From the NCBI GenBank assembly GCA_041648975.1, contig JBAZNZ010000003.1, positions 9,664 to 73,663 on the forward strand: a stretch of DNA of 64,000 nucleotides, in the 5' to 3' direction. This DNA comes from Candidatus Omnitrophota bacterium. GTDB taxonomy: Bacteria > Omnitrophota > Gorgyraeia > 2-01-FULL-45-10. The position numbers were made by a program, and so were the translations under genes. The first letter of the stretch is position 1. Every line of letters begins with the position of its first letter. This document shows positions 36,490 through 58,819 of the stretch, in pieces. A model generated the notes under the pieces. It worked only from the letters and a program-made list of their open reading frames with translations, searched no databases and was not told the DNA's origin.

Positions 36490-37118
36490 CGTTAGGTATA
36501 ATACCGGCCCGCGGAGGGTCTAAGGGCATACCGCGAAAAAATATAAAGATGGTAGCAGGTAAGCCCCTGATCGCATGGACTATTGAGGCGGCGAAGAAGT
36601 CGAAACTATTGGATCGCTTTGTGGTCTCGACGGACGACGCGGTAATAGCCAATATCGCAAAACGGTGCGGAGCGGACGTTATAAATCGCCCCGCGAGACT
36701 GGCGACGGATAAAGCGACGACGCTTTCCGCGTTGCAGCATGTGCTTTCGCTGATCGACACGGACACGGTAGTGCTGCTCCAACCTACTTCCCCGGTCCGT
36801 AGCCCGGGATTGATAGACAGGTGTATAAAGAAGTTTCGCAGGACGAAAGCGGACAATCTCGCGACAGGATTTATATGCAAATTCATGGAGTATGGCTCGT
36901 ATATAAATAAGAGGCGCCAGGACCTGAAAGGATTTTTCTACGACGACGGCAATGTATATGTTATAAAGGCAGACCTGATAAAGAAGGGAAAGATATTCGG
37001 TAAAAAGGCTGGACGTATATTTACCTCGAAAGAAGAGAACGTAGAGATAGACGATGAATTTGAATTATGGATGGCGGGAGAGATCCTGTCGAAACGCGCC
37101 GGCGGGGGCAGACAGTAA
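36486..37118 (+). CDS. Acylneuraminate cytidylyltransferase family (CMP-nonulosonic acid synthetase; NeuA/LegF-like)
   Basis: IIPARGGSKGIPRKNI CTP_transf_3 signature. ATGA and TAATG overlaps with neighbours. Confidence 0.8.
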   Translation: MTLGIIPARGGSKGIPRKNIKMVAGKPLIAWTIEAAKKSKLLDRFVVSTDDAVIANIAKRCGADVINRPARLATDKATTLSALQHVLSLIDTDTVVLLQPTSPVRSPGLIDRCIKKFRRTKADNLATGFICKFMEYGSYINKRRQDLKGFFYDDGNVYVIKADLIKKGKIFGKKAGRIFTSKEENVEIDDEFELWMAGEILSKRAGGGRQ

Positions 37119-38164
37119 TGCGAAGATATGTTACGATTGCGGGAAGGAAGATAGGAGAAGGCCGGCCGGTATTTATCATAGCCGAGGCCGGCGTGAACCA
37201 TAATGGCAGCCTTGCCATAGCGATGAAGATGGTCGACGCGGCTAAAAACGCCGGCGCCGACGCCGTTAAATTCCAGACCTTTAGGGCAGAGGAGCTTGTG
37301 GTGAAGGACGCGCCGAAAGCCGCTTATCAAAAGAGGGCGGTCCCCGGGAAATCGCAGTTCCAGATGCTCAAGTCGCTTGAGCTCTCCGAAGAAGCGTTTA
37401 AAAGATTATCCGATCACTGCAAAAAAAGAAAGATACTATTCCTCTCTACTCCGTTCGATCTTCAAAGCGCCACTCTCTTGAATAGGCTTGGAGTGTCCGC
37501 CTTTAAGATCAGTTCGGGTGAGATAACCAACACCCCTTTACTAAAACAGGCAGCCGGATACGGGAAACCGATCATCCTTTCTACCGGCATGTCAACTCTA
37601 CGTGAGGTGAGGGAAGCCGTTGATGTAATTTATTCGGCCGGCAACAGGCGCCTGATACTGCTGCACTGCACTTCTAATTATCCGGCGCGTTACGAAGACG
37701 CCAATCTAAGGGCGATCGTTACGCTTCAGAAAAATTTTGACTGTCCGGTAGGATATTCGGATCACACAGAAGGATTGGAGGCGTCGATTGCGGCGACGGC
37801 ATTAGGAGCCTGTGTTATCGAGAGACATTTTACCCTGGACAGAGCCATGAAGGGCCCGGACCATAAGGCGTCCTTAGACGTTAAGGGGCTGGAGGATCTG
37901 GTGAGGTCTGTCAGAAATACCGAAAAGTCCATGGGCGGCGGCATAAAAGCCCCTGCCTCCGCCGAGGAAGAAGTGAAGAGGATAGCAAGGAAGAGCGTCG
38001 TGGCGCTTGAAGATATCCCAAAAGGCCGAACAATAAGACGGAGCATGCTTACGGTGAAGAGGCCAGGGACAGGTTTGAGTCCTAAATACCTGTATATTCT
38101 GGATGGAAAGAAAGCCAAACTACGCATAAAGAAGGACGAGGTCTTGACCTCGGATATGATATGA
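37118..38164 (+). CDS. NeuB-family nonulosonic acid synthase with SAF domain (NeuB/LegI-like)
   Basis: FIIAEAGVNHNGSLAIA, DAVKFQTF, GYSDHTEG, C-terminal SAF region. The track start at 37067 was moved to ATG 37118. Confidence 0.85.
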   Translation: MRRYVTIAGRKIGEGRPVFIIAEAGVNHNGSLAIAMKMVDAAKNAGADAVKFQTFRAEELVVKDAPKAAYQKRAVPGKSQFQMLKSLELSEEAFKRLSDHCKKRKILFLSTPFDLQSATLLNRLGVSAFKISSGEITNTPLLKQAAGYGKPIILSTGMSTLREVREAVDVIYSAGNRRLILLHCTSNYPARYEDANLRAIVTLQKNFDCPVGYSDHTEGLEASIAATALGACVIERHFTLDRAMKGPDHKASLDVKGLEDLVRSVRNTEKSMGGGIKAPASAEEEVKRIARKSVVALEDIPKGRTIRRSMLTVKRPGTGLSPKYLYILDGKKAKLRIKKDEVLTSDMI

Positions 38165-39306
38165 AACGTAAAGTCTGCGTTATAACAGGGTCGCGGTCGG
38201 ATTATGGGATTCTCCAACCGGTGATGAAGGCGATAAAAAAATCTAAGCGCCTGGAACTCTTTGTTATCGCCACTTCCATGCATCTGATGAAGGAATTCGG
38301 CTATACGGTCCGCGAGATAGAGAAAGACGGTTTTCATATAAACAACAGGATAAACATTTCGTATTGGGAGGATACCGGCCATGCAATGGCGTTCTCCGTC
38401 GGGAAGGCCGTATCGATGTTCTCTGACAGTTTTCTCCGGCTGAAGCCCGATATAGTATTGGTGCTGGGCGATAGAGGAGAGATGCTTGCCGCGGCCATCG
38501 CCGCGAATTATATGAATATACCCGTCGCGCACATTCACGGAGGCGAGGTGTCGGGGCACATAGACGGACTTGTCAGGCACGCTATAACGAAGTTGTCCAA
38601 CATACACTTTCCCGCTACGGATAAGGCGAAAGAAAGGATAAAAAAGCTGGGTGAGAGGCCGGATACGGTCTTTAAAGTCGGCGCGCCTGCCCTGGATAGT
38701 GTACTATCCGGCCGTTACGCGGGCAAGAAAGAACTTCTTAAGAAATACGGCCTCAATGACGGTCCGACATTGATCGTGGTCCAGCATCCTGTAAGCGCCG
38801 AAACAGGCAAGTCGGCGTCGCATATGCGGACGACGCTGGAAGCGGTCAAAGAGTTACAGATACAGACTATTGTAATATACTCCAATGCCGACGCCGGAGG
38901 CAGGAAGATGATCGATGTGATAAAAAGATACGAGAGGCATTCGCTCATAAAAGCCTTTAAGAGCATACCGCACGCAGACTACCTGGGGCTTATGAGAATA
39001 TCGTCCGTCCTGGTGGGAAATTCTTCAAGCGGTATTATCGAAGCCGCTTCGTTCAAGCTTCCGGTCGTAAATATTGGCGATCGACAAAGGGGCCGCGAGC
39101 GTTGCGGTAACGTCATAGACGCCGATCATGGGATGAACGCAATTTTAAGGGCGATCAAAAAGGCGCTTTTCGATAAGAAATTCAGGAATAAGGTGAGACA
39201 TTGCAATAATCCTTACGGCGACGGTCACGCAGGGCAACGTATAGCAGACAGACTGGCCGCAATACGCCTGAACAAAGAACTGCTTGTTAAGCAATTGACC
39301 TATTGA
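38161..39306 (+). CDS. UDP/GDP-N-acetylglucosamine 2-epimerase (hydrolysing), NeuC/LegG family
   Basis: VCVITGSRSDYGILQP, HIHGGEVSG, 381 aa. Confidence 0.85.
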   Translation: MKRKVCVITGSRSDYGILQPVMKAIKKSKRLELFVIATSMHLMKEFGYTVREIEKDGFHINNRINISYWEDTGHAMAFSVGKAVSMFSDSFLRLKPDIVLVLGDRGEMLAAAIAANYMNIPVAHIHGGEVSGHIDGLVRHAITKLSNIHFPATDKAKERIKKLGERPDTVFKVGAPALDSVLSGRYAGKKELLKKYGLNDGPTLIVVQHPVSAETGKSASHMRTTLEAVKELQIQTIVIYSNADAGGRKMIDVIKRYERHSLIKAFKSIPHADYLGLMRISSVLVGNSSSGIIEAASFKLPVVNIGDRQRGRERCGNVIDADHGMNAILRAIKKALFDKKFRNKVRHCNNPYGDGHAGQRIADRLAAIRLNKELLVKQLTY

Positions 39307-39314
39307 GGGGCAAA

Positions 39315-39938
39315 ATGAAGAAAAGGGAAAAGATCGTGATATTCGGCGCCGGCGGGCATGGCAGGGTAGTCCTCGATATCCTCGCGGAGGCAGGCGCCGA
39401 TACAGCCGGTTTTATCGATGAGGATATACAAAAGGCAGGCTCTATTATAAACGGTTTTAAGGTCCTGGGAGACTGGAAGTATCTGGAGGGCAGGAAGGAT
39501 CTCTCTGTCGCCCTGGGTATAGGCGATAATGAAATGCGTGAGAAGATATTCAGAAAAGCAAAAAAGTTTGGCCTGGATATCCGCTCAGCCGTACATCCGA
39601 AGGCAGTCATTTCCAGAACGGCAAAACTTGGCGAAGGCGTTGTCATTATGGCCGGGGCGGTGGTCAATACTGGCGCCGCGCTGGAAGACGGGGTTGTGGT
39701 TAATACAGGAGCGACGGTCGATCACGATTGCCGTCTCGGAAGGTTCTGCCAGTTATGGCCCGGTTCGCATCTGGCGGGCACTGTAAGTGTCGGTGAATTT
39801 TCGTATATCGGTACGGGCGCATCCGTTATCAATAATATAAGAATAGGCAGGGAAGTCACAGTGGGCGCAGGGGCCGCGGTCATATCGGATATACCCGATA
39901 ACGTGAAGGCTGTAGGCGTGCCCGCAAAAATTATATAA
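39315..39938 (+). CDS. Hexapeptide-repeat sugar N-acetyltransferase (NeuD/PglD family)
   Basis: IVIFGAGGHGRVVLDIL N-terminal Rossmann-like region, then left-handed beta-helix hexapeptide repeats. The track TTG start at 39303 was moved to ATG 39315, which has a GAGGGG Shine-Dalgarno. Confidence 0.8.
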   Translation: MKKREKIVIFGAGGHGRVVLDILAEAGADTAGFIDEDIQKAGSIINGFKVLGDWKYLEGRKDLSVALGIGDNEMREKIFRKAKKFGLDIRSAVHPKAVISRTAKLGEGVVIMAGAVVNTGAALEDGVVVNTGATVDHDCRLGRFCQLWPGSHLAGTVSVGEFSYIGTGASVINNIRIGREVTVGAGAAVISDIPDNVKAVGVPAKII

Positions 39939-39949
39939 GGAAATATGTC

Positions 39950-41329
39950 ATGAAGCTGAAAAACCTTAAAGATGTCATTGCCGGCGCGGGGTCGTCGATA
40001 AAAGACGTCATGAGACTTATCGACCATTCGGGCTTGAGAGTAGCTTACATAGTAGACGCGCAAAAAAGATTGGCAGGAGCCATAAGCGATAGCGAGATCA
40101 GGAAGGCGATCCTGCGGGGTGTGGACATTCGTAACAAAGCGTTGGATATAGCCAATCCCGACCCGATCGTCTTCCGGGAAGAAGACGCGGCAAATCCTTA
40201 TTCCGCGGAGCGGGCCGTCAAGCGCTTGCTGGAGAAGATGCCGGACAGCCGCTATATTCTTGTCGTTGACAGGAATAGCCGGCCGAAAAAGATCGTGCGC
40301 TGCCGGGCATTCACAAGCGTGGCGAATAAAGAAAAACATGAACATACGGGAAGGAAGATACTTGTGGTGGGCGGCGCGGGATATCTGGGATCTATCCTTG
40401 TAAGAAAGCTTCTCGCGCGCGATATCAAGGTCAGAGTCCTCGATATCCTGATGTACGGGTCAAAATCGGTAGAGGGCCTTCTTAAAAACAGGATGTTCGA
40501 ACTTGTAAATGGCGATATGCGTGACATATCTACAATAGTCAGGGCGCTGTCGGGCGTCGACGCGGTTGTCAACCTTGCGGCGATAGTAGGCGACCCGGCC
40601 TGCAAAAACAGGCCTGAAGCGGCGATAGAGACAAACTACCTCGCGAATAAGGCCTTGGCCGAGGCGTGCAAGTATCACCAGATAAACAGGTTCGTCTATG
40701 CCTCTACGTGCAGCGTGTACGGGACGATGGATGGGAATAAACTACTGGACGAAAATTCCGCCCTCAATCCGGTTTCGCTCTACGCCAGGTCCAAGATACA
40801 TGCCGAGGAGGGGATACTAAGCCTCATGGACGAGAACTTCTCCCCGACCATATTGCGGATGGGGACATTATACGGCTGTTCGCCGAGGATGAGGTTTGAC
40901 CTCGTAGTGAATACAATGACTAAAACAGCGGTGAAGTCAGGCAGGATATCGGTCCATGGAGGCGGTAAACAGTGGCGTCCTATGCTGCATGTCGACGATG
41001 CCGCCGAGGCCTACATAAAATGTCTGGAGGCCCCTATTCACAGGATAAGAGGCGAGATATTCAATGTCGGCTCGGAAGACGAGAACTACAGGATAATCCG
41101 CCTGGCAGAGATAGTGAAGGGGTGTGTACCGGGCTCGAAGCTGGTAATGGAGGGGAAGGCAAATGATCCGAGGAACTATTCGGTCTCATTCGCCAAGATA
41201 AGGAAGGCCCTGAAGTTCAGGCCTGTCGTCAGGATGGAGAAGGGCGTCATGGACATAAAGAAGAAGATAGGCGAGGAGATCGATAACGTGGACGATCCGA
41301 AATATTATAACGTGGAATACAGCCAATGA
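39950..41329 (+). CDS. Fusion of tandem CBS domains with an NAD-dependent epimerase/dehydratase (SDR) domain
   Basis: N-terminal about 120 aa CBS-pair-like region (VMRLIDHSGLRVAYIVD...AISDSEIRKAIL). Then VVGGAGYLGSILVRKL Rossmann and YARSK (YxxxK). Confidence 0.75.
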   Translation: MKLKNLKDVIAGAGSSIKDVMRLIDHSGLRVAYIVDAQKRLAGAISDSEIRKAILRGVDIRNKALDIANPDPIVFREEDAANPYSAERAVKRLLEKMPDSRYILVVDRNSRPKKIVRCRAFTSVANKEKHEHTGRKILVVGGAGYLGSILVRKLLARDIKVRVLDILMYGSKSVEGLLKNRMFELVNGDMRDISTIVRALSGVDAVVNLAAIVGDPACKNRPEAAIETNYLANKALAEACKYHQINRFVYASTCSVYGTMDGNKLLDENSALNPVSLYARSKIHAEEGILSLMDENFSPTILRMGTLYGCSPRMRFDLVVNTMTKTAVKSGRISVHGGGKQWRPMLHVDDAAEAYIKCLEAPIHRIRGEIFNVGSEDENYRIIRLAEIVKGCVPGSKLVMEGKANDPRNYSVSFAKIRKALKFRPVVRMEKGVMDIKKKIGEEIDNVDDPKYYNVEYSQ

Positions 41330-42510
41330 ACCATAAAGAGAAGCCGGCGATATTAGGCGGAAAACCCGTTTTCAAAGAACCGGTCCCCATTACCAGGCCC
41401 ACTATCGGCCGCATAGGGCGCCTGAAGAAAGCGTTTGGGGAGATATTGCGCACCAGGATGATCACGAACTCGGATTACGTCAGGCGTTTCGAATCGAAGC
41501 TGTCGAGGCATATAGGGGTAAAACACGCCGTTGCACTTTCCAGCTGCACAAGCGGGCTCATGCTGATAATGAAAGCGCTTGAGCTGAAGGGTGAGGTGAT
41601 AATGCCGAGCTTCACCTTTCACGCTACTGCCCACGCGGCAGTATGGAACGGCCTTAAGCCGGTATTTGTCGACTGCAATATAGATACCTACAATATTGAC
41701 CCGGACGAAGTGGAAAGATCCATCACATCCAGAACGTCGGCGATAGTCGCAGTGCACATATTCGGGAACCCGCCGGACATAGGAGCCCTGACCAAGATAG
41801 CTAAAAGGCACGGGCTGAAGCTGGTCTTTGATGCCGCCCACGGCCTCGGATCCGCATATAAAGGGAAGAGGGTGGGTTGTTTTGGGGACGCCGAATCGTT
41901 CAGTTTGAGTCCCACCAAACTTCTGACCACCGGCGAGGGCGGCGTAGTGACGACGAATAATGACCGGATCGCCAATTTCGTCCGTATGGGCAGGACGTAT
42001 GGGGATCCTGGTAGTTACGATCCCGCGTTCTCGGGCCTCAGCTCGAGAATGACGGAGTTTTCCGCGCTGCTCGGTATCGAAGGGCTCGACCTCCTGGAAG
42101 AAAACGCAAGACGGAGGAACAGGCTGGCCGGATTGTACAAAGAACTGTTATCCGGGATACCCGGCCTGAGTTTTCAGAAAATAGATAAAAGCCTCCGGTC
42201 GAGCTATAAGGACTTCTCGGTCCTGGTCGATAAGGATATGTTCGGCTTGTCGAGGGACTTACTCTTTGATTCTTTGGCCGCCGAGAACATTAGCGCCAAA
42301 AAATATTTTTATCCTCCTGTACACCGCCAGAGAGCATTCGCCTCTTTCGGCCAGGCCGGCAAAAAGCTAAAAAATACAGAAATACTGTCCGACAACTCAT
42401 TGAGCCTGCCGCTCTATTCCGATATGCCGGAGTCCGACGTAAGTAAGATATGTCTTGCCGTGCGCCGCTCGCATCGTTATGCCCGGGAGATATCGAAGGC
42501 CGAGAGATGA
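41326..42510 (+). CDS. DegT-family sugar aminotransferase
   Basis: PAILGGKPVF, SCTSGLMLIM, SLSPTKLLTTGEGG. Confidence 0.85.
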   Translation: MNHKEKPAILGGKPVFKEPVPITRPTIGRIGRLKKAFGEILRTRMITNSDYVRRFESKLSRHIGVKHAVALSSCTSGLMLIMKALELKGEVIMPSFTFHATAHAAVWNGLKPVFVDCNIDTYNIDPDEVERSITSRTSAIVAVHIFGNPPDIGALTKIAKRHGLKLVFDAAHGLGSAYKGKRVGCFGDAESFSLSPTKLLTTGEGGVVTTNNDRIANFVRMGRTYGDPGSYDPAFSGLSSRMTEFSALLGIEGLDLLEENARRRNRLAGLYKELLSGIPGLSFQKIDKSLRSSYKDFSVLVDKDMFGLSRDLLFDSLAAENISAKKYFYPPVHRQRAFASFGQAGKKLKNTEILSDNSLSLPLYSDMPESDVSKICLAVRRSHRYAREISKAER

Positions 42511-43664
42511 AAAAGATATGTTTTTTCTTACAGACGCCTCTCACAAGACGCGATTATGAAAGATTCGGAGTAGAGTTGCTTAGAAATATTGGGTTTGAGG
42601 TATTGTTCCTGGATATGACGGCAGTCATGAATCCTGATTATAAGTCATCAGAAAAGATTGCTACGGATAGTACAGTATACTGTAATACTTACGATGATGC
42701 AGATAAATTTCTGAGGGATAGCGGGGATATGTTCGGTATAGACATGATAGGCGCCCGCGTGATAAACGTATTTTTTTACAGGATATTGAAAAGACATAAG
42801 GTACGCTATGCCGCTTTTTGTGCTAATAGTATTCCGACCTCTTATTCCTGGAACAGCAAAGGCATGGATCTTATCGGAAATATAAAAATATTATTTGGAA
42901 GCATAGTTTGGCGGCTTCCGAATTCATTGTTGGGGCTGCCTACGCCAGATTATGTCTTAGCCGGCGGAGAGAGATATTCTCCAAAACGACCTCAACCCGG
43001 CAGTGCCACGCGGGTAATATGGGCACATTCACTTGATTACGATAAATATCTGGAATATTGTTTGAGCGACCGCATTCCTCTTATTGACGGAGGGTATGCC
43101 GTTTTTCTTGACGAATATTTTCCGCTACATCCAGATTATAATATAAAAGGCGGTATGCATAAAAATCCTTTTAGCGAGGACAGGCAAGGCGAATATTATA
43201 CAGGAATGAACAGGTTTTTTTCTTATCTGGAAAACCGTATTGGCATACCTATCGCTATCGCTGCACACCCGAAGTCGAAGTACGAAGACATGCCGGGTGT
43301 GTTCGGAGAGCGTAAGATGTTTAAAGGTAAAACTATAGAATTGGTGTCGCGCGCCAGATATGTAATAGCACACGTCAGCACTTCCGTAAATTTTGCGGTA
43401 TTGTTCAGAAAACCGATAGTATTCGTTACCATGAATGCGATGGAAAGTACGCCTTATGGTCCTTTAATATCGAATTTCGCATCTCAATTTAATGAGAGGG
43501 TTGTCAATATAGATCTTGACCCTGCCGGTTGGCCTGCGAAAGAACCGGTTATTGTGGCAGAGGGGCCGTATAAGGAATACGTTAGGCGTTTTATCAAAAC
43601 CGACGGTTCTCCGCAACTTCCGTTCTGGCAGATAGTGGGCGACAGGCTAAAGGCTTATAACTGA
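42507..43664 (+). CDS. Hypothetical protein; candidate GT-B-like (sialyl/NulO- or capsule-type) transferase
   Basis: No signature motif recognised. Two His-Pro dipeptides (FPLHPDY, AAHPKSKY). Sits just after the CMP-nonulosonate pathway. ATGA overlap places the start at 42507. Confidence 0.3.
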   Translation: MKKICFFLQTPLTRRDYERFGVELLRNIGFEVLFLDMTAVMNPDYKSSEKIATDSTVYCNTYDDADKFLRDSGDMFGIDMIGARVINVFFYRILKRHKVRYAAFCANSIPTSYSWNSKGMDLIGNIKILFGSIVWRLPNSLLGLPTPDYVLAGGERYSPKRPQPGSATRVIWAHSLDYDKYLEYCLSDRIPLIDGGYAVFLDEYFPLHPDYNIKGGMHKNPFSEDRQGEYYTGMNRFFSYLENRIGIPIAIAAHPKSKYEDMPGVFGERKMFKGKTIELVSRARYVIAHVSTSVNFAVLFRKPIVFVTMNAMESTPYGPLISNFASQFNERVVNIDLDPAGWPAKEPVIVAEGPYKEYVRRFIKTDGSPQLPFWQIVGDRLKAYN

Positions 43665-43665
43665 T

Positions 43666-45633
43666 ATGACTAAGATGGCAGTATTCGAAAAGTTGAGTTT
43701 CATCTCGCTTCCCATCGCGGCGGGTTATCTGGCCATGGGATATGAGGTGGGCTATTTCGATAAGAACGTATCGTCCGCTTTTTCAGTGTTATACGGATAT
43801 TTTCATCGCACCGGGAAGATCAAGAAAATGCCGCCGGAAGACTTTACTCTTGCGATGCAGTATGAAGCCCATAACGCGGCGCTTGACATCGTAGAGAGCG
43901 CATATGAGGTGCGCTTCAGTAAGAGCGGTGCCATAAGGCTTATAGCAAGGATGATGGGTTCCGACCTGGTCCATTCTATTTACAAAAAAGCCCTCCTTGC
44001 AAGGATATACGATTATTATCGTATGCAGTCGGTGTTGAATAAGATGGCGGTTGACGCCGGTCCCGGCAGCCGGCTTTGTTTTGTCGCCTGCGATTATATG
44101 GTCATGGAGAAGATGACCGCTTTCGGCAAGCCGCGCGGCGGTCTCGATAAACGTTTTTTCATATCATGGTGGTCGCGCATATTGTCATTAGCTGCGGGGA
44201 TGGGCGGTTATATAGCAAATATATTCTGCCTTTTTGCCTTTCCCGTATGGATATCGGCCAAAGTGAAAAAGGTAGACCGTGACAAGCCGCTGGTAAAGGA
44301 CTATCAGGCCGGTATCCGCGTATATCAGGGAGATTTCGGGATGTGCGGCAAATACCGCTCCATGGATTTTATTCTCGATGGCAGGGACCTCAATGCCTCG
44401 AATGTCCTTTTCTGCGCGGAGACGTATTTGTCCGGGGACTACGTTTCCGAGATAAGAAAACGTGGATACAGCCTTGTTGTCCTGCCGGAGATACTGTGCC
44501 GTGTCAGCCGCGCATTCTTAAAGGAAAAGGTATTCAAAGTCTTTCTGCCTTTCTGGGCCCAGTCCATGGCCGCCTCTTTGACGGAAAGCGGTTTTATAAC
44601 CAAGACGACCGTGACCATATTACGCGATTATCTCCTGTGGTCCAGGTTCCTGGATGAGTTCCGTATTAAGCACTACGCAGTCTACAACAATTATGAACGT
44701 GGGCACATAACGAGGAACATCCTCCTTTCGAAGAGGGACGTCACTACCTGGTATTATATACATTCCGGTCACAATCCGGACCTCTTCAATGCCCCGGACG
44801 AACCCGATTACAGACATACATTCTTCTCCTATATGTATTATGACAGGTTCCTGTCTTGGGGCGGCAGGGTGACGCGGTATTATTCATCTTTCATTACCCA
44901 TATTGGGAAGTTTGAGAACTCGGGATGCCTGTGGTCGGAGCATGTGAGGAAGGCGGCGGAGGACAAAGAACTTTATTCCTCAAAGCGAAGGTCTATTCTC
45001 AAAAGCCTGGGCAGGGACTCGGGCAGGATAGTGGCCGTATTCGATACGACGGTAGGAGCGGATGCGCCCCTGCAGCTTGAGGACATGGCCGCTTTTGTGA
45101 CTGGCATAGTGAGGCTTATGGATGAAGACCCTGATATCGTGGTCGTTTTCAAGGAAAAATGGCTGTGGAATGAATTGCTGGAGCGTGAACCCGGGATAGC
45201 GTCTTATTATCAGAAGCTTTATGAGCATGCGCGCTGTTACCGTACAGGAGGCAGCAACAGGGACTCCACGGAAGTGATGGCTGTTTCCGATCTTGTCATA
45301 TCCGCTCCTTTTACGGCACCTACAACGGAAGCGCTCGGCGCCCGGAAAAAGGCGATCTATTTCGATGCCACGAACAGGTTCAGGGGTCGTTTCTACGACA
45401 CGTTCCCGAAGCTGGTTGCTCATAATTATAATGAGTTGAAAGGCCTTGTACGTTACTGGCTGGACGAGGCTTCGGACAAGGATTTCAGCGACTATCTCGA
45501 CAGGCATATAAAAGGCAAGATAGACGCTTATGTCGACGGCAGGGGAATAACGAGATTCCGCGCCTTTCTGTGCGGAAAGGAAGAGGCAGCCAAGCATGGT
45601 GAAGATAGCTACGCCCATATCGGGTCTTTTTAA
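43666..45633 (+). CDS. Hypothetical large protein (655 aa), function unknown
   Basis: Long uninterrupted ORF with uniform codon usage and no recognisable motif. Confidence 0.3.
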   Translation: MTKMAVFEKLSFISLPIAAGYLAMGYEVGYFDKNVSSAFSVLYGYFHRTGKIKKMPPEDFTLAMQYEAHNAALDIVESAYEVRFSKSGAIRLIARMMGSDLVHSIYKKALLARIYDYYRMQSVLNKMAVDAGPGSRLCFVACDYMVMEKMTAFGKPRGGLDKRFFISWWSRILSLAAGMGGYIANIFCLFAFPVWISAKVKKVDRDKPLVKDYQAGIRVYQGDFGMCGKYRSMDFILDGRDLNASNVLFCAETYLSGDYVSEIRKRGYSLVVLPEILCRVSRAFLKEKVFKVFLPFWAQSMAASLTESGFITKTTVTILRDYLLWSRFLDEFRIKHYAVYNNYERGHITRNILLSKRDVTTWYYIHSGHNPDLFNAPDEPDYRHTFFSYMYYDRFLSWGGRVTRYYSSFITHIGKFENSGCLWSEHVRKAAEDKELYSSKRRSILKSLGRDSGRIVAVFDTTVGADAPLQLEDMAAFVTGIVRLMDEDPDIVVVFKEKWLWNELLEREPGIASYYQKLYEHARCYRTGGSNRDSTEVMAVSDLVISAPFTAPTTEALGARKKAIYFDATNRFRGRFYDTFPKLVAHNYNELKGLVRYWLDEASDKDFSDYLDRHIKGKIDAYVDGRGITRFRAFLCGKEEAAKHGEDSYAHIGSF

Positions 45634-46363
45634 AGATAAGGCCGCCGCGCTCTCTATATCGGCGCATTCGGACTGCCTGGAGTTCCGCGACCATAGCCTG
45701 GGCTCAGAGCTTAAGAAGCAGGAGATATTTCATTGCGACCTGCAACCTATACATGTTTTTAGCGATAAAGAGACAGGTTACTTGCGGCATGTCAAAAAAA
45801 ATAAGCCGGGATTGAAGCTTGTTACTTTTCACATCGCTTCATGCTGCGACAGGCCCAGGCTTAAAGGCGGCATGTTCGAGCCAGGCGGCAGGCGTTACAC
45901 GAGACAGGAGTTGCTGAGGACGGCCGGGCGCAATTTCAGGGCGATAAAGAGGATATTTGGCAGTAAGACGAAGATCGCCGTCGAGAACAACAACTTTTAT
46001 CCTACGGGCGCGTATAAATATATCACGGACGCGGATTTCGTTTCGGAGATGGTCCGCGGGAATGCCATATATTTCGTGTTTGACATCGCGCACGGCGTGA
46101 TAACGTCCCGAAACAGGGGGATCGACTACCGCGGATACAAGAGGGCGCTTCCGATGGACAGGGCGGTGCAGTTGCATGTAAGCGCCCCGGGATCGCGACA
46201 CGGCATTGCCTATGACGCGCATAGGCTGCCGGGCGATAATGAGTATGGGGAGGTCAGGGAGCTGCTGGCGGAATATCCCGGTATAGAATATGTGACCGTG
46301 GAGTATTATAAAGGCGCCAAGGATCTTGTCGCCTCACTGGAAAGGATGAGAAGGTTGCTATGA
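45596..46363 (+). CDS. Hypothetical protein; possible DUF692/xylose-isomerase-like TIM-barrel (MNIO-like) enzyme
   Basis: PISGLF, CLEFRDHS, LVTFHIAS, IAVENNNFYP and FVFDIAHG loosely parallel the conserved DUF692 blocks (GVGLR, WVEIHSEN, LSLHGVGLS, LENVS, LLDVNH). Confidence 0.3.
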   Translation: MVKIATPISGLFKDKAAALSISAHSDCLEFRDHSLGSELKKQEIFHCDLQPIHVFSDKETGYLRHVKKNKPGLKLVTFHIASCCDRPRLKGGMFEPGGRRYTRQELLRTAGRNFRAIKRIFGSKTKIAVENNNFYPTGAYKYITDADFVSEMVRGNAIYFVFDIAHGVITSRNRGIDYRGYKRALPMDRAVQLHVSAPGSRHGIAYDAHRLPGDNEYGEVRELLAEYPGIEYVTVEYYKGAKDLVASLERMRRLL

Positions 46364-47130
46364 GCTATCTAGACGGACAGTTCGGGCTCAGGGATAAAGT
46401 GGCGCTGATTACCGGTGCCTCGGGGCAGCTCGGCCGGCGGCTGTGCGAAAGTTTCGTCAAGGCGGGGGCCAAGGTGGCAGGGCTGGACAAGGTCATATCG
46501 AAAGCGAAGACAGACGGCGTCGAATATTACAGAGCCGATATAACGAAGAAGAAGGATGTTGAGGGTGCTCTGGGGCGCGTAGCCGGGAAATACGGGACCA
46601 TAGATATAATGATCAACAACGCGGGTGTCAGCGTTTTCGAGCCTTTCGAGAAGAGGCCCGAGAAGAGCATAGACCATGTCATGGACGTGAACCTGAAAGG
46701 GACGTTCTTCTGCATCCAGTCGTACGTCAATATATTCGACAGGTGTAAGCTGAAGAAGGGCTCGATCGTCAACGTTGCCTCCTTTTACGGCGTCATATCT
46801 CCGGACTTCAGGATATATACGGACTGCAAGAGAAAGAATTCCGAGATCTACGGGGCTACCAAGGCCGGTGTCATACAGATGACTAGATATTTCGCCGTCC
46901 ACCTGGCTTCCAGGAATATCCGGGTGAATGCGGTATCTCCGGGCGGGATATACAATCCCGATAATCCGCAGGGGAAAGATTTCATAAAGAACTATTCGGC
47001 GAGGTGCCCCATGGGAAGGATGGCCAGGGACGGGGAGATCGCGGGGGCCGTCATGTACCTTTCCGGTGACGCGGCAAGCTATACGACCGGGCACAATATA
47101 GTAGTAGACGGCGGCATGAGCTGCTGGTGA
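46360..47130 (+). CDS. Short-chain dehydrogenase/reductase (classical SDR)
   Basis: ITGASGQLG, NNAGV, YGATKAG (YxxxK). Confidence 0.8.
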   Translation: MSYLDGQFGLRDKVALITGASGQLGRRLCESFVKAGAKVAGLDKVISKAKTDGVEYYRADITKKKDVEGALGRVAGKYGTIDIMINNAGVSVFEPFEKRPEKSIDHVMDVNLKGTFFCIQSYVNIFDRCKLKKGSIVNVASFYGVISPDFRIYTDCKRKNSEIYGATKAGVIQMTRYFAVHLASRNIRVNAVSPGGIYNPDNPQGKDFIKNYSARCPMGRMARDGEIAGAVMYLSGDAASYTTGHNIVVDGGMSCW

Positions 47131-47147
47131 GAGAAGGCGGGTGCGAT

Positions 47148-47999
47148 ATGGGTTACTCAAGAAAAGACCTTAAAGATTACGGGCTCGGCACAAATAACGG
47201 CATCTACGTTATAGCGGAGATAGGTATAAACCACATGGGTGACATCGACTCCGCCAGGAACCTCATAGGGTCAGCGCGCAGGGCCGGCGCGGACGCGGTG
47301 AAATTCCAGACTTATGTGACAGAAAGAAGGACGCATAAAGGCTCTCCGATATTCGATATACTGAAAAGGTGCGAGCTTCCGTTCGAGGCCTTCAGGGAGC
47401 TTAAGGATTATTCGAGTTCGCTCGACATAGAATTTTTCTCGACGCCTTTTGACGCCGAGAGCGTGGATTTTCTGGAGAGCATCGGCTGCCGCATATACAA
47501 GGTATCGTCGTTCGATGTGACGAACCATGCGCTTCTTTCCAGGGTCGCCGCCACGGGCAAGACTGTCATGATGTCCGTAGGCATGGCCAATATGGGCGAG
47601 ATACAGGACGCTTACAATATCCTGAAAGGCGGGACCTCAAAGGTCGCGCTGTTACATTGTATCTCCGCGTATCCGTCCAGGCCGGAAGACGCGAACCTGG
47701 CCGCGATATATGTCCTGAAGGAAAAATTCGATTGTCTGATAGGCCAGTCCGACCATACGAACGATATCGTGATACCGTTGTATGCGGCCTCGGCCGGAGC
47801 GCAGGTCGTCGAGAAGCATTATAAGATCGATGAACGGATGGACTGCGTGGATGCGGCCGTGTCTATTACTGAGAAACAGATGGCCGGGATGGTGGAAGAG
47901 ATGAGAAAGCTCGATAAGGCGCTTGGAAGGGGCGAGCTGGGGGTGAGGCCCGCCGAAAAAGGCTGCGAGATATTCCGGAGAAAAGCGGGGGCGCGATGA
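47148..47999 (+). CDS. NeuB-family synthase catalytic (TIM-barrel) domain lacking the C-terminal SAF domain
   Basis: YVIAEIGINHMGD, DAVKFQTY, GQSDHTND. Stops about 60 aa short of SAF-containing NeuB. The start was moved from GTG 47127 to ATG 47148. Confidence 0.75.
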   Translation: MGYSRKDLKDYGLGTNNGIYVIAEIGINHMGDIDSARNLIGSARRAGADAVKFQTYVTERRTHKGSPIFDILKRCELPFEAFRELKDYSSSLDIEFFSTPFDAESVDFLESIGCRIYKVSSFDVTNHALLSRVAATGKTVMMSVGMANMGEIQDAYNILKGGTSKVALLHCISAYPSRPEDANLAAIYVLKEKFDCLIGQSDHTNDIVIPLYAASAGAQVVEKHYKIDERMDCVDAAVSITEKQMAGMVEEMRKLDKALGRGELGVRPAEKGCEIFRRKAGAR

Positions 48000-49069
48000 A
48001 TAAACTTTACGTTTTTCAGGATGGGAGGAAGAATGATTATTCTAAGGAACTGGAGTGCGCTTATAAGACGTACGGCAAGGGCTCTCCGAAGTCGAAATTT
48101 CGCGGTATTTCCGTGGACAAGCTCATCGACCACTCCACAGAGGTGATCATATCGAACGGGCTGCCCAAGAACTGGTATTTCATACTGAAGGGCCTCAACA
48201 TAGTGACGATCACGCTGGACAGGCTGGATAAGCATTTAAATCTGGCCGACATAGTCATAGATTTCAAGAGCCAGGACAGCAACAGGTATTTTACGGGCCC
48301 CGATTATTCCATACGCAACAATAAGGACCTGGAATTCGACAGCATAGCGAACCTGATCAAGAAGCTAGAGTGGGACTCGGGGTTCTTCGGTTTCCCCGTG
48401 GCCCTGCTCAGCTCGCGCTATCTTACGGAAAACATAATGCACCGAATAGAGAAGTTCATAAAGCGCGAGAATATAAGACTGGTCGAGTATCTCTGCAACT
48501 GCCACGACAGCCGGAGCGTCAAGATTGCCGAAAAGAACGGTTTCCATTTCGCCGACATTCGGCTCTCATTCGAAAAGGTCCTCAGGGAAAAGCATGGTCC
48601 GCAAATGCCGAAAGCGATACGGTTCGGAAAGGCTGATAAGAAGGATGTGAGGACGCTCAAGCATATCAGCGAGGACCTGTATAAGGACAGCAGGTACTTT
48701 TTCGATACCAATTTCAACAGGAGTAAGATAAACGAATTCTACCAGAACTGGATAGAGAAAGCCGTCCTGGGAAAATACGACGATGAATGTTTCTGCCTTT
48801 ATACGAATGGCGTTCCCGTGGCTTTCTGCTCGTTGAAATATAATATAGGATCGAGCGTCACCATAGGGTTGTTGGGGCTCTCCAACGAATATCAGGGCAA
48901 GGGGCTGGGCAAGGTGCTGCTATACAGCATCTTCGATATGCTGATCGACAGGGGGGTATCGAGAGTATCCGTCGTCACGCAGGGGCGTAATTATGCGGCC
49001 CAGCGCCTATACCAGAACGTCGGGTTCCTTACCAAGGCCACGGAGCTCTGGTACCACAAATGGATCTGA
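47996..49069 (+). CDS. GNAT-family N-acetyltransferase with an N-terminal about 180 aa domain of unknown function (PseH-like; N-domain possibly a PseG-like remnant)
   Basis: C-terminal GNAT core EYQGKGLGKVLL...RNYAAQRLYQNVGF. Confidence 0.7.
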   Translation: MNKLYVFQDGRKNDYSKELECAYKTYGKGSPKSKFRGISVDKLIDHSTEVIISNGLPKNWYFILKGLNIVTITLDRLDKHLNLADIVIDFKSQDSNRYFTGPDYSIRNNKDLEFDSIANLIKKLEWDSGFFGFPVALLSSRYLTENIMHRIEKFIKRENIRLVEYLCNCHDSRSVKIAEKNGFHFADIRLSFEKVLREKHGPQMPKAIRFGKADKKDVRTLKHISEDLYKDSRYFFDTNFNRSKINEFYQNWIEKAVLGKYDDECFCLYTNGVPVAFCSLKYNIGSSVTIGLLGLSNEYQGKGLGKVLLYSIFDMLIDRGVSRVSVVTQGRNYAAQRLYQNVGFLTKATELWYHKWI

Positions 49070-49968
49070 TGGAGAAGATATCGAGGTTTACCCTGGGCGC
49101 GGCGCAATTAGGGCTGCCTTACGGCATTTCCGGCAGGCCTCTCGTGGACTCGCCGGAGGACATACTGCGAGCCGCCCGCGAAGCGGGTATAGACACGATC
49201 GATACCGCTAAGGCATACGGAAACAGCGAAGAGATGATCGGCCGGTATCTGAAAAAGAACGCGGGATGGTCACCTGATATAATAACGAAGATAAAGATAG
49301 AGGGCGCAAGCGCCGCTGAGCTCGTTCGCGAGGTCGAGATGAAGTTGGACGACAGCCTGGAGAAGCTCGGCCGCAAAAGCATATACGGCCTCATGCTCCA
49401 TAATTACGGAGCGTTAGCCAGGCATAAGCGCTCTCTTGTCGACGCGATGGCGCAGTTGAAAGCGGCCCGTAAGGTAGCCAAGATAGGCATTTCGGTTTAC
49501 GGCGCCGATGAGCTGAAGATCTCGCTGGGATATGATGAGTTCGAGATATTTCAGGGGCCGGTAAACTTGTTCGACCGCAGGATAACGAGTTCGGGATCGT
49601 TGAAAGAGATAGTCCGGCGTAAAAAGTCTTTCTTCGCAAGGTCGGTGTTTCTGCAGGGGCTTTTTTTCATGGATGACGAAGCATTGGCCGGCAAGGTCCC
49701 GGAAGCCCGGACCTATATAGGTAAGCTGAGGGGATTGTCCGAAAAATCGGGCATGAGTGTGGCGGAACTGGCATTTTCATATACGGGAAGCATCGAGGGC
49801 ATAACGAGCCTTGTGTTGGGAGTCAAAAGCAGGAAACAGTTGAGCGATCTGATAGCGTTGTTAAAGACAAAACCCATCGCGCGGGACCTTGCGGGACAAA
49901 TAGAGAAGATATTCTCGGATGTGCCGCAGTATGTATACGATCCCAGGAGATGGCCTAACGCGGTATGA
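49060..49968 (+). CDS. Aldo/keto reductase
   Basis: IDTAKAYGNSEEMIG, LMLHNY. Confidence 0.8.
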   Translation: MDLMEKISRFTLGAAQLGLPYGISGRPLVDSPEDILRAAREAGIDTIDTAKAYGNSEEMIGRYLKKNAGWSPDIITKIKIEGASAAELVREVEMKLDDSLEKLGRKSIYGLMLHNYGALARHKRSLVDAMAQLKAARKVAKIGISVYGADELKISLGYDEFEIFQGPVNLFDRRITSSGSLKEIVRRKKSFFARSVFLQGLFFMDDEALAGKVPEARTYIGKLRGLSEKSGMSVAELAFSYTGSIEGITSLVLGVKSRKQLSDLIALLKTKPIARDLAGQIEKIFSDVPQYVYDPRRWPNAV

Positions 49969-50948
49969 CTATGAAGCGATATAAAACGGCAATAGTAGGG
50001 CTGGGGAATATAGCGTGGAAATTCGACGCGAGGGTAAGGTCGGCGGACCCGCTTACTCATGCGGGCGCGTATATGAAAAATCCCCGGACTGTCCTTGTCG
50101 GCGGCTGCTCGCCCGACAAGCAGGACCGCAGAGATTTCGAAAAAAGATACGGGGCGCCGGCATTCGCGGGCATAGAGGAGATGATCGGGAAGACGGAGCC
50201 CCATATAGTAAGCATATGCTCCCCGTCTGCTCTTCATTACGAGCACGTGGAGTACAGCCTCCGCAAGAGGGTGCCGATGATATGGCTGGAGAAGCCGCCT
50301 ACATTGACGGTCGAAGATATTGACGGCCTTATATATAAGGTAAGGGCAGCCGGTTCGTCCAGGTTACTGGTCAATTACCAGAGGCGCTATTGCCGGTCTT
50401 ACGCCCGGCTTAAAGAGCTTTTGGCGCGCCGAGCCCTGGGCAGGATCGTCTCCGTGAACTTGACGTATTCGAGAGGGCTGGCGACCAACGGTTCCCATAT
50501 CCTTGATATGGCGTTTTTCCTTACGGGAGACAAAGTAGATGCCGTGATCGGGCCTGTCTCTCCGGCTTCCGGGTCTGCCAATCCGTCGTTTATGATGAAA
50601 CTGGCCGGCGGGATCCCGTGTTCCGTATCCGGCATGGACCTGCCGTATCATTGCATCGACGTATCGGTCACCTGCGAACGGGGGCGCGCTTCCATAATAC
50701 ACGGCGGCATGAAGACCGTCTGGGAGATGAAGGAAGAACATGAGCTTTTCCCCGGGTTCTACAGGCTGCGTGACGCGGCGAAGAACCTTATAGGGCCAGG
50801 CGGTTTCAAGGGAAGCATGACTGCTGCGCTTGGTGATATTATTAACGCTCATGAAAAGAGAAGGGAGCCTGTGAGCAGCCTTCGCACCGCCAGACGCTCG
50901 CAGCTTGTGATGGAAGAGGTCAATAAAAGGATAAAGGCGGCGGGATGA
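49965..50948 (+). CDS. Gfo/Idh/MocA-family NAD(P)-dependent oxidoreductase
   Basis: TAIVGLGNIAWKF Rossmann, EKPP motif (WLEKPPTL). Confidence 0.8.
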   Translation: MTMKRYKTAIVGLGNIAWKFDARVRSADPLTHAGAYMKNPRTVLVGGCSPDKQDRRDFEKRYGAPAFAGIEEMIGKTEPHIVSICSPSALHYEHVEYSLRKRVPMIWLEKPPTLTVEDIDGLIYKVRAAGSSRLLVNYQRRYCRSYARLKELLARRALGRIVSVNLTYSRGLATNGSHILDMAFFLTGDKVDAVIGPVSPASGSANPSFMMKLAGGIPCSVSGMDLPYHCIDVSVTCERGRASIIHGGMKTVWEMKEEHELFPGFYRLRDAAKNLIGPGGFKGSMTAALGDIINAHEKRREPVSSLRTARRSQLVMEEVNKRIKAAG

Positions 50949-52060: not shown

Positions 52061-52062
52061 GC

Positions 52063-52782
52063 ATGAATGTGGCGATAATACCCGCCAGAGGCGGGAGCAA
52101 GCGGGTACCAAAAAAGAATATCAAACTTTTCATAGGCAAACCGATCATAACGTATTCCCTGAAAGAGACCGTGGACAGCGGACTCTTCGATAGGGTCATA
52201 GTCTCTACCGATTCGGAAGAGATAGCGGCAATAGCCAGGAGCGCCGGGGCGGAGGTCCCGTTCATGCGCCCCGCCGAACTGTCGGACGATCATACACACA
52301 TAGCGGACGTCGTAGAACATGCGATCAAGTGGCTTAAGGCGGACGGCTGCGACGTTGAATATGTATGCTGTATATTCTGCACAGCCCCGTTCATACAGAA
52401 AAAATATCTAAAGGAAGGCCTTGAGAAGATAAGGAAGACCAAGACCGATTCGGTATTCACGGTCACCAGCTTTCCGTTCCCCATATTGCGGGGGATGAGG
52501 ATAACCGACAAAGGGACCCTCGAGATGTTCTGGCCGCAGTATGAATTCACCAGGTCCAACGACCTCGAGGAGGCATATCATGACGCGGGGCAGTTCTACT
52601 GGCTGGAGGCCGACCGCTTCCTCAAGAATAAGAGATTTTTTACGAAAGACGCCCTTCCGATAATCCTGCCCAGGTATCTTGTGCAGGACATAGATACCCC
52701 GGAGGACTGGGAGACGGCCGAGATGCTGTATGAATCCATCCAGAGAAAAGATAATAAAAAAGAGGAGGGAGTAAGAAGATGA
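52063..52782 (+). CDS. Acylneuraminate cytidylyltransferase family (PseF/LegF-like CMP-nonulosonate synthetase), second copy
   Basis: VAIIPARGGSKRVPKKNI. The start was moved from TTG 52057 to ATG 52063, which has an AAGGGGG Shine-Dalgarno. Confidence 0.8.
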   Translation: MNVAIIPARGGSKRVPKKNIKLFIGKPIITYSLKETVDSGLFDRVIVSTDSEEIAAIARSAGAEVPFMRPAELSDDHTHIADVVEHAIKWLKADGCDVEYVCCIFCTAPFIQKKYLKEGLEKIRKTKTDSVFTVTSFPFPILRGMRITDKGTLEMFWPQYEFTRSNDLEEAYHDAGQFYWLEADRFLKNKRFFTKDALPIILPRYLVQDIDTPEDWETAEMLYESIQRKDNKKEEGVRR

Positions 52783-58816: not shown

Positions 58817-58819
58817 GAG

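Follow-up and report, generated by a model that had tools for sequence, protein, structure and literature searches.

Nonulosonic acids (NulOs) such as legionaminic acid (Leg) and pseudaminic acid (Pse) decorate capsules, lipopolysaccharides, S-layers and flagella, where they shape immune and phage recognition. To our knowledge, the biosynthesis of these sugars is well known, while the enzymes that attach them are poorly known. The known attaching enzymes are few, namely the Maf proteins, which as far as we know are not GT-B enzymes, the TagB-like enzymes of Tannerella forsythia, and KpsS1 of Acinetobacter baumannii, a retaining pseudaminyltransferase of glycosyltransferase (GT) family GT118, KpsC belonging to GT107. 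In this study, two adjacent open reading frames, ORF1 and ORF2, were investigated in a stretch of 64,000 nucleotides (the window) from Candidatus Omnitrophota bacterium (assembly GCA_041648975.1, contig JBAZNZ010000003.1, positions 9,664 to 73,663). An earlier reading of the letters alone, here called the original prediction, had put them forward as candidate NulO or capsule-type transferases, and the candidacy as NulO transferases is supported by the GT-B fold of both proteins and by their coupling to NulO genes. We consider it on balance probable that they are two different GT-B glycosyltransferases, each dedicated to the cytidine monophosphate (CMP)-activated NulO of the flanking cassettes; of the two, ORF1 is probably the better case.

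Outside flagellin glycosylation, hardly any transferases for Leg and Pse are known (PMC5420450, PMC6137143, PMC11356810), and for archaea the Leg transferase "has yet to be identified" (PMC6137143). KpsS-type enzymes use CMP-ulosonic acids as donors, and KpsS1 of A. baumannii is a GT-B Pse transferase (PMC12887879). A His-Pro (HP) motif binds CMP in the sialyltransferases of GT38, GT52 and GT80 and is needed for CMP-sugar binding (PMC2169525), and a (K/R)xHP motif binds CMP in the Kdo (3-deoxy-D-manno-octulosonate) transferases of GT99 and GT107 (PMC12887879). The T. forsythia candidates (Tanf_01245, TFUB4_00887 and BFO_1060, the last being the counterpart in strain FDC 92A2) are GT-B proteins that resemble TagB and carry an HP motif, described as transferases of Pse or Leg derivatives; they adjoin the CMP-NulO locus, and genetics supports NulO transfer to a lipid- or protein-linked glycan (PMC5420450). 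Maf proteins transfer Pse, Leg or N-acetylneuraminic acid (Neu5Ac) from CMP donors to flagellin and are encoded beside NulO pathways (PMC9298399, PMC11339370), and a gene of the LIC12162 family adjoins sialic-acid genes in Herbaspirillum (PMC6679464).

Genes, families and predicted folds

The features of ORF1 on which the argument leans are the following.

42507..43664, + strand: ORF1, 385 aa, soluble GT-B-fold protein (from the ORF, homologs, AlphaFold2, Foldseek and context)
43110..43136, + strand: D202-E203-Y-F-P206-L-H208-P209-D210, conserved acidic/His loop after the first strand of the C-terminal domain (198-201)
43266..43271, + strand: H254-P255 ('IAIAAHPKS'), candidate CMP-binding HP motif, after strand 249-253
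43377..43385, + strand: S291-T292-S293 ('VIAHVSTSVNFAVLFRKP'; the STS loop), candidate phosphate-binding loop, after strand 285-288

The two long ORFs, of 385 and 655 aa, proved to be real and separate genes, as judged from their coordinates and from identical NCBI proteins. The ATG of ORF1 (42507-42509) overlaps the TGA (42508-42510) of the upstream DegT gene (41326-42510) to form the ATGA by which the original prediction had coupled them. An alternative longer ATG exists at 42450; the start at 42507 fits the NCBI protein P0001 (385 aa, 100% identical), a 'hypothetical protein' from a Candidatus Omnitrophota metagenome-assembled genome (MAG), and homologs share that Met. The TGA of ORF1 (43662-43664) is followed by the ATG of ORF2 at 43666, so that the predicted gap of 2 nt has to be corrected to 1 nt (43665), and the next ORF begins at 45596, within the 3' end of ORF2. 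The possibility of one frameshifted gene was rejected, since each family exists independently of the other: they stand alone at ~390 and ~650 aa and are often non-adjacent elsewhere.

ORF1 belongs to a large family that has no Pfam or NCBIfam model and no literature. A word-indexed search returned 396 homologs, all unnamed and none with a pre-computed Pfam domain, unlike the homologs of ORF2 in the same table, all of which carry PF27878 (PFTS_polysacc). An exhaustive profile search with the ORF1 family gave 4858 representative clusters (50% identity) at E<=1e-3 and 2810 at E<=1e-30. Relatives are encoded by 138 GTDB species of both bacteria (Omnitrophota, Margulisiibacteriota, Elusimicrobiota, Syntrophales, Desulfovibrionaceae, Planctomycetes, Nitrospirae, Campylobacterales, a Legionella MAG and Syntrophomonas wolfei) and archaea (Methanolobus, Methanoregula, Methanoperedens and Woesearchaeota), with Syntrophomonas wolfei subsp. 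methylbutyratica JCM 14075 and Methanolobus psychrotolerans YSF-03 as named records other than MAGs.

Against Pfam-A, ORF1 gave no match at E<=1, and against NCBIfam it gave a weak match only, to the glycosyltransferase family TIGR04372 (E 0.026), over the stretch of the STS loop. Among 76 ORF1-family members, sub-threshold NCBIfam matches fell on TIGR04372 (7/76), the LIC12162 family, TIGR04331 (2/76), and the BFO_1060 family (1/76), and so seem, weakly, to concentrate on orphan GT-B transferase families linked to NulOs. Searches of the PDB by sequence, made with profiles of both families, returned noise only, and tblastn of ORF1 and ORF2 against a plasmid collection found no match.

Structures of both proteins were modelled by AlphaFold2 with family alignments. 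The ORF1 model (predicted local distance difference test, pLDDT, 92; predicted TM-score, pTM, 0.90) displays alternating beta and alpha elements in two halves, and Foldseek against the PDB gave 175 matches at E<=1e-3, the best 50 being all GT-B enzymes; the matches include GT1 (GtfB, OleD), UDP-GlcNAc 2-epimerases and PseG. The ORF2 model (pLDDT 88, pTM 0.89) shows the same alternation in two halves and gave 189 matches at E<=1e-3, again with GT-B enzymes alone among the best 50; these matches include trehalose-6-phosphate synthases (OtsA/Tps1), the teichoic-acid enzymes TagF and TarL, whose donors are CDP-activated, NeuC and 2-epimerases, TagF ranking second and TarL fourth with a target-normalised TM of ~0.5. 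The E values for both ORFs (GT1, OtsA, TagF/TarL, NeuC and PseG-type) range from 1e-8 to 1e-6, and a viral structure library yielded generic GT-B glycosyltransferases only. The fold is therefore confidently GT-B in both cases, with no unrelated fold, in line with the original prediction.

The alignment of 76 homologs, read together with the model, places the conserved residues of ORF1 where the active site of GT-B enzymes lies. They comprise R15/D16/R19 after the first strand, H174, D177 and D179, and the loops listed above. In the D202-D210 loop, whose family form is D202-E-Y-x-P206-F-H208-P-D210, D202 and P206 are invariant and H208 and D210 are kept in at least 90% of the sequences. As had been noticed at the outset, ORF1 has two His-Pro dipeptides, and exactly two, H208-P209 ('FPLHPDY') and H254-P255 ('IAAHPKS'), both of them conserved in the 76 homologs; P255 is invariant and H254 reaches at least 90%. 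The STS loop follows this second dipeptide after 37 residues, with S291 invariant and H289 and T292 at 90% or above.

Genomic context and fusions of ORF1

The window contains three CMP-ulosonate cassettes (A, B and C), and ORF1 and ORF2 are placed exactly between the first two.

36486..42510, + strand: cassette A, Leg-type CMP-NulO pathway (Pfam, NCBIfam)
36486, 37067 and 38161, + strand: cassette A genes for CMP-transferase, NeuB and NeuC-type epimerase (Pfam, NCBIfam)
39303, 39950 and 41326, + strand: cassette A genes, continued, for NeuD/PglD-type acetyltransferase, dehydratase with CBS and short-chain dehydrogenase/reductase (SDR) domains, and DegT aminotransferase
45596..54110, + strand: cassette B, second NulO cassette
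Within cassette B, + strand: TIM-barrel protein, SDR, divergent NeuB (47127), GNAT, aldo-keto reductase (AKR) and GFO oxidoreductase
Within cassette B, continued, + strand: unannotated GT-B-like protein (50945), PseF equivalog (52057) and DegT (52779)
58046-59611, + strand: cassette C, third CMP-ulosonate cassette, with HpcH/HpaI-type aldolase and KdsB-like cytidylyltransferase

Judged from its profile matches, the enzyme set of cassette A is that of a Leg-type pathway, and its NeuB (NeuB_NnaB) and NeuC-type (NeuC_NnaA) proteins both exceed the NCBIfam cut-off. All six Leg-type steps are present without counting ORF1 or ORF2, so that the complete CMP-sugar pathway that had been placed directly upstream corresponds to this six-gene cassette.

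For comparison across genomes, ORFs were called in the 80 ORF1 loci kept and searched with the window's own proteins, and immediate neighbours were counted by the order of annotated genes. A CMP-transferase was found in 64/80 loci and NeuB in 56/80, and one or the other lies within 10 kb of ORF1 in 46 of the 47 loci having at least 8 kb on each side (on both sides in 31/47). The order of genes is polar: the NeuC-type epimerase (Epimerase_2) stands upstream of ORF1 in 28/56 loci and downstream in 2/56, the PFTS gene upstream in 1/56 and downstream in 12/56, and HpcH upstream in 1/56 and downstream in 10/56. This polarity gives a usual layout of a Leg-like cassette, ORF1 and a second CMP-ulosonate cassette, and ORF1 was assigned to the sugar of cassette A because the upstream partner is the constant one. 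The same context appears in the pre-computed Pfam tables of four independent contigs, and coupling to CMP-transferase genes persists from phylum to phylum at 30-40% identity, with variation in the remaining GT genes of the loci.

Natural fusions were also observed. In P0382 (901 aa; locus L127, 6106-8811), an ORF1 domain is followed by a Wzx/Polysacc_synt flippase, and this protein stands at the usual position of ORF1, after the CMP-transferase and before the HpcH cassette; a separate Wzx gene directly follows ORF1 in four archaeal loci (L003, L019, L036 and L040). Two further representatives, P0269 and P0334 (722 and 770 aa), join a SAM-methyltransferase to ORF1.

The PFTS protein ORF2

43666..45633, + strand: ORF2, 655 aa, member of TIGR04417/PF27878 with a TagF/OtsA-like GT-B fold
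44158..44262, + strand: residues ~165-199 ('FFISWWSRILSLAAGMGGYIANIFCLFAFPVWISAKV'), hydrophobic helical hairpin, helices 168-190 and 192-199
45151..45159, + strand: K496-E497-K498 ('VVVFKEKW'), after the second strand of the C-terminal domain
45226..45231, + strand: H521-A522 (family consensus H-P-R-C, here HARC), H521 in 91% of the family
45307..45318, + strand: P548-F549-T550-A551, position of the PFTS motif, followed by a conserved E555-A-L-G558 helix

The original prediction had seen no recognisable motif in either protein, which has to be corrected for ORF2. This protein scores 253.2 bits against NCBIfam TIGR04417 (cut-off 100), over profile positions 33-521 of 522 and ORF2 residues 68-595, and an identical protein of 655 aa from a Candidatus Omnitrophota MAG (P0121) is annotated as 'polysaccharide biosynthesis PFTS motif protein'. 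Against Pfam-A, ORF2 itself gave no match at E<=1, PF04464 (Glyphos_transf) included. The PFTS family (TIGR04417/PF27878) is thus already named and uncharacterised, and ORF2 is a new member of it. An hhalign comparison of ORF1 and ORF2 gave a probability of 2%, that is, no demonstrable common origin beyond the fold.

In 57 PFTS sequences, 16-44% identical to ORF2, the conserved positions are D234, D238, R350, W423, F459-D460, K496, K498, H521, R523, D542, the S551 position, E555, D567, R630 and R632, with K496 kept in 96% and K498 in 92%. The segment 'VVVFKEKW' aligns with 'IWVKVHP' of KpsC, which places a Lys where the His of the HP motif is expected, and H521, which is aligned to the HP of ORF1, occupies a site that differs from the canonical one after the strand. 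The hairpin at residues 165-199 is, in the model, a likely membrane-association segment; its Kyte-Doolittle(19) hydropathy peaks at 1.76 at residue 181, against a family median of 1.39. As a separate observation, ORF2 is off the family consensus at two motif positions (HA and PFTA), which bears on whether this copy is fully active.

Among 21 PFTS loci that span 9 kb or more and were picked regardless of ORF1, NeuB occurs in 17/21 and a CMP-transferase in 12/21; the co-occurrence with NeuB/NeuA genes that the original prediction had proposed as a check was recovered for both families. The adjacency of ORF1 and PFTS is retained by the closest PFTS relatives (7/41 loci), two loci (L085 and L086) carry two PFTS paralogs each, and a frequent placement is inside the order SDR-DegT-PFTS-CMP-transferase-NeuB. 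In two loci (L023 and L048) the PFTS cassettes also hold PseB-, PseC-, PseG-PseH-, PseI- and PseF-like genes, so that PFTS comes on top of a full Pse pathway. The PFTS domain, to about residue 570, is fused to a CTP_transf_3 CMP-NulO synthetase in two proteins of Omnitrophota MAGs (L042 13297-15729, 811 aa; L066 13183-15636, 818 aa), and this fusion links PFTS to a CMP-activated sugar. Every cytidylyltransferase found next to PFTS is of the CMP-NulO/Kdo type (CTP_transf_3), no other kind having been looked for.

Comparison with known transferases

For the comparison by sequence, the kps/neu locus of E. coli UTI89, with the K1 enzymes, was used, and both family profiles were compared with KpsC, KpsS, NeuS, NeuE and NeuC, with no significant match to any of the five. 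Like KpsS, KpsS1 and KpsC, ORF1 is a two-domain GT-B protein of about 400 aa. Both the KpsS-type enzymes and ORF1 have an HP after a strand of the C-terminal domain and a Ser/Thr loop ~37-45 residues further on, and the conserved Asp residues of ORF1 (D202 and D210) lie in the loop where KpsS-type enzymes have QxxxD. In the full-length hhalign alignment of ORF1 with KpsS the HP and the Ser/Thr loop are in register, as is an N-terminal 'LLQGP' with 'FLQTP', though the match is not significant (4-5% probability, E ~0.01; 3.9% and 0.011 with a KpsS profile); the KpsS profile held sequences at least 63% identical only, and the comparison is no better for it. The likeness to the HP motif of sialyltransferases, which the original prediction had proposed, holds for H254-P255: it is conserved, stands after a strand and aligns with 'IKPHP' of NeuS and 'IKHHP' of KpsS in low-confidence, non-significant hhalign alignments, in which the STS loop falls on 'TSSS' of NeuS and 'INSTAG' of KpsS, likewise with low confidence. 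In the QxxxD region, ORF1 keeps the invariant D202 and the conserved D210 and differs from KpsS in that the Gln is not conserved; the Asp aligned to D237 of KpsS is D202 in one alignment and D210 in the other. The 'FEEGYLRP' of KpsS corresponds to 'F.AN..P' in ORF1. The PFTS family in turn differs from KpsC, with K-E-K for K-V-H-P, and its 'FDTTVGA', aligned with the QxxxD segment 'VDQTFND' of KpsC, has neither a conserved Gln nor the nucleophile Asp; the hhalign probabilities of the PFTS family are 0.7% with KpsS and 4.0% with KpsC.

Membership in GT38, GT52, GT80 (as far as the library models it) or the KpsC and KpsS families, which the original prediction had offered for comparison, was found by sequence model for neither ORF. 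PF05159 (Capsule_synth) had no match in ORF1, ORF2 or the 76 ORF1 homologs, and the GT38 and GT52 models PF07388 and PF07922 had none in ORF1 or ORF2 at E<=1, with single weak matches to the polyST and GT52 Pfam models (E ~0.05-0.06) among the 76 homologs. What NeuS/polyST of GT38, GT52 and PmST1 of GT80 share with ORF1 is the GT-B fold, the HP motif and, as predicted for ORF1, a CMP-NulO donor, and the context also differs from that of Neu5Ac sialyltransferases, as the cassettes here are those of 5,7-diamino NulOs (Leg/Pse-type).

The T. forsythia enzymes share the TagF-like fold with the PFTS family, and one ORF1-family member matches NF046086, the family of BFO_1060, below threshold (E 0.007); by their description they are set apart by a length of ~445 aa and by DXD and D/E-D/E-G motifs. 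TIGR04372 and TIGR04331 are, like the ORF1 family, uncharacterised putative GT-B transferases, and the ORF1-family matches to them lie over the STS-loop region, below curated cut-offs (best E 5e-4 to 8e-4). Maf proteins act directly on flagellin, whereas ORF1 is linked to Wzx flippases, and no flagellin gene was identified among the window ORFs scanned. From these sequence comparisons, ORF1 appears to be a separate, unnamed group, akin to but outside the HP-motif CMP-sugar GT-B families GT38/52/80 and GT99/107/118, and the nearest hints come from the KpsS-type enzymes and the T. forsythia NulO transferases.

Proposed function and alternatives

We infer the transferase activity, the pairing of each enzyme with its NulO, the acceptor and the chemistry, inverting or retaining, from the fold, the conserved residues and the context. 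ORF1, a soluble protein and the last gene of the Leg-type cassette, would most likely bind the CMP-NulO of that cassette in its C-terminal Rossmann domain, with H254-P255 and the S291-T292-S293 loop contacting CMP and phosphate and E278 the ribose, and could attach the sugar, on the cytoplasmic side of the membrane, to a lipid-linked glycan that Wzx is about to flip; D202, D210, H174 and D179 are the candidate catalytic residues. ORF2 would be a TagF-like GT-B enzyme that associates with the membrane through its hydrophobic hairpin and most likely transfers the second NulO, of the Pse or PseF type, with K496/K498, H521 and the P-F-T-(S/A) loop as putative donor contacts.

A number of observations weigh against this proposal. 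The TM-scores of both models are ~0.5, which makes the fold class secure and indicates no particular family, and no sialyl- or Kdo-transferase was found among the best 50 Foldseek matches of either model. None of the hhalign comparisons of the ORF1 and ORF2 profiles with KpsC, KpsS, NeuS and NeuE was significant (probabilities <=8%). ORF1 reads A-A-H-P in place of the (K/R)-x-H-P of known enzymes, K-x-H-P in KpsS, and D/E-D/E-G was not found conserved in its alignment, the 'EEG' of KpsS aligning with 'ANS' at low confidence. ORF2 has K-E-K and no HP at the canonical position after the strand; Ala and not Pro comes after its H521, and its motif reads PFTA where 94% of the 57 PFTS sequences have Ser. 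Its K-x-K motif and OtsA-like matches could point to a nucleoside diphosphate (NDP)-sugar donor. Each fusion, of ORF1 or of PFTS, is known from one or two metagenomic contigs only. Horizontal spread of one cassette may account in part for the conserved synteny, so that the loci would not be independent observations, and no literature was found on the PFTS motif, TIGR04417, TIGR04372 or PF27878.

The alternative that survives best, though we regard it as unlikely, is that one or both proteins are ordinary NDP-sugar (UDP, GDP or dTDP) transferases which build the acceptor glycan and were co-inherited with the NulO genes, the true NulO transferase lying elsewhere, for example at 50945-52060. The best Foldseek matches are indeed NDP-sugar enzymes, GT1 for ORF1 and OtsA (GT20) for ORF2, and in ORF2 K496-x-K498 occupies the place that K-x-H-P has in CMP-dependent enzymes. 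Directly before the PseF gene stands a third candidate, with 'IGIAPHP', and further unannotated KxHP proteins occur in the loci. An origin as mere acceptor-building enzymes is harder to reconcile with the conserved HP and STS pair of ORF1, which lies in the CMP-binding register, with the fusion of PFTS to a CMP-NulO synthetase in two genomes, and with a CMP-transferase coupling that persists across phyla at 30-40% identity as other GT genes vary.

It is improbable, in our estimation, that the two are GT-B enzymes of the pathway itself or of its tailoring, such as a nucleotide-sugar hydrolase, a hydrolysing epimerase (PseG-, NeuC- or LegG-like) or a remodeller of CMP-NulO. UDP-GlcNAc 2-epimerases, NeuC and PseG are among the Foldseek matches, three ORF1-family members show weak Epimerase_2 matches (best E 0.069), and PFTS often lies inside SDR-DegT-PFTS-CMP-transferase-NeuB. 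Yet cassette A has a NeuC-type enzyme of its own, which exceeds the NCBIfam cut-off, and PseG-PseH, PseG or CMP-transferase-PseG genes are present within the PFTS cassettes themselves. The fusion or adjacency of ORF1 with Wzx is hard to square with a soluble pathway step, and so are the hydrophobic segment of PFTS and the pairs of PFTS paralogs in single loci. The idea that PFTS supplies a missing PseG-like hydrolase was rejected, given the PseG-PseH fusion in L023 and L048, a PseG-like protein in L066 and a CMP-transferase-PseG fusion in L009.

Finally, it is very improbable that ORF2 is a TagF-like phosphotransferase or polymerase that transfers alditol- or sugar-phosphate from a CDP donor into a phosphodiester-linked polymer, for although TagF and TarL rank second and fourth in Foldseek, the protein has a membrane-association segment, and its layout (strand-FDTTFG, strand-KEK, 'SACFTS..EALGA', 'KKAIYFD...Y.D') presumably resembles that of TagF-like PF04464, there is no Glyphos_transf (PF04464) match at E<=1, the PFTS fusion partner is a CTP_transf_3 enzyme, and the neighbouring cytidylyltransferases, among which only this type was sought, belong to it as well.

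Under the preferred reading of ORF1 and ORF2 as dedicated CMP-NulO transferases, two large candidate families become directly testable, with defined residues and with natural fusions that hint at donor and pathway step; they are useful, testable candidates and no surprise in kind. A further step, which we put forward as a tentative possibility, is that the ORF1 family is the missing Leg-type transferase of lipid-linked glycans and a new CAZy GT family, and that PFTS is a second new CMP-NulO family, of the Pse type, in which Lys would stand in for the usual His-Pro and which includes natural fusions of a member with its own CMP-sugar synthetase. Should both be true, the families would explain how 5,7-diamino NulOs reach the surface glycans of many uncultured phyla and of methanogens, and such enzymes would be useful for the chemoenzymatic synthesis of Leg- and Pse-glycans.

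Flanking cassettes and other genes of the window

The CMP-transferase of cassette A at 36486 (210 aa) was considered as a truncated gene, its NCBIfam match spanning the N-terminal half only, and this was rejected, as its alignment with the PseF-type paralog covers residues 3-186 of the latter. The 4,6-dehydratase-like SDR of the same cassette (39950-41329, + strand) has an N-terminal CBS domain, an architecture also seen in locus L001. Cassette A is headed by a pair of an iron-type alcohol dehydrogenase (FeADH) and a DegT aminotransferase (34143-36489, + strand), which recurs upstream of ORF1 homologs in 13/56 related loci ('FeADH DegT CMPt NeuB ...', CMPt being the CMP-transferase); this recurrence suggests that the NulO or its precursor undergoes an additional oxidation and transamination. 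Just 5' of the cassette, in the middle of the array, lies a small HTH regulator gene (MarR/TrmB-like; 33636-34133, + strand).

In cassette B, the PseF equivalog scores 318.8 bits (NCBIfam cut-off 205.7). The gene directly 5' of it (50945-52060, + strand) encodes 371 aa with no Pfam or NCBIfam match and contains the stretches 'KILAVSGDVGG' at the N-terminus, 'IQIGIAPHPRE' and 'GMASILLYEAYLVGKP'. From these stretches it looks like a third GT-B-type protein, which could be the real transferase or a hydrolase of cassette B; compared with the PseG-like proteins of related loci, no similarity was found.

Cassette C is built on an HpcH/HpaI-type aldolase in place of a NeuB synthase, as is also seen in L002, L003 and L127, and the HpcH cassettes of related loci add a 2-hydroxyacid dehydrogenase, an SDR, a HAD phosphatase and a cyclase. 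After the methyltransferase of these cassettes, unannotated proteins of 550-650 aa are encoded (L002 15452-17404, L003 16037-17686 and L127 11242-12978), which may be the transferases for the HpcH-derived sugar. Two of them, those read, show K-x-H-P ('IIIKCHP' in L002 and 'VLLKFHP' in L003), with no detectable kinship to ORF1 or PFTS.

The whole window (positions 1-64000) is one co-directional array of glycan genes on the + strand, a "megacluster". Its glycosyltransferases are three of GT2, four of GT4 type and one GT-C-like PMT_2 protein, and it also encodes two Wzx flippases, an asparagine synthase and an FkbH-like protein. A polytopic membrane protein of 584 aa without Pfam match (7837-9591, + strand), between GT2 and DegT genes, may be a Wzy-like polymerase or a GT-C-like enzyme. 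Radical SAM enzymes are unusually numerous in the window, with ten members.

5462, 13860, 20486, 24254, 29191, 31418 and 54107, + strand: seven radical SAM enzymes with a B12-binding domain
12775, 55496 (with SPASM) and 60056, + strand: three radical SAM enzymes without a B12-binding domain

One of these proteins (20486-23191, + strand, 901 aa) is a fusion of a B12-binding radical SAM enzyme (residues ~19-372) to a GT4-type glycosyltransferase (~518-860).

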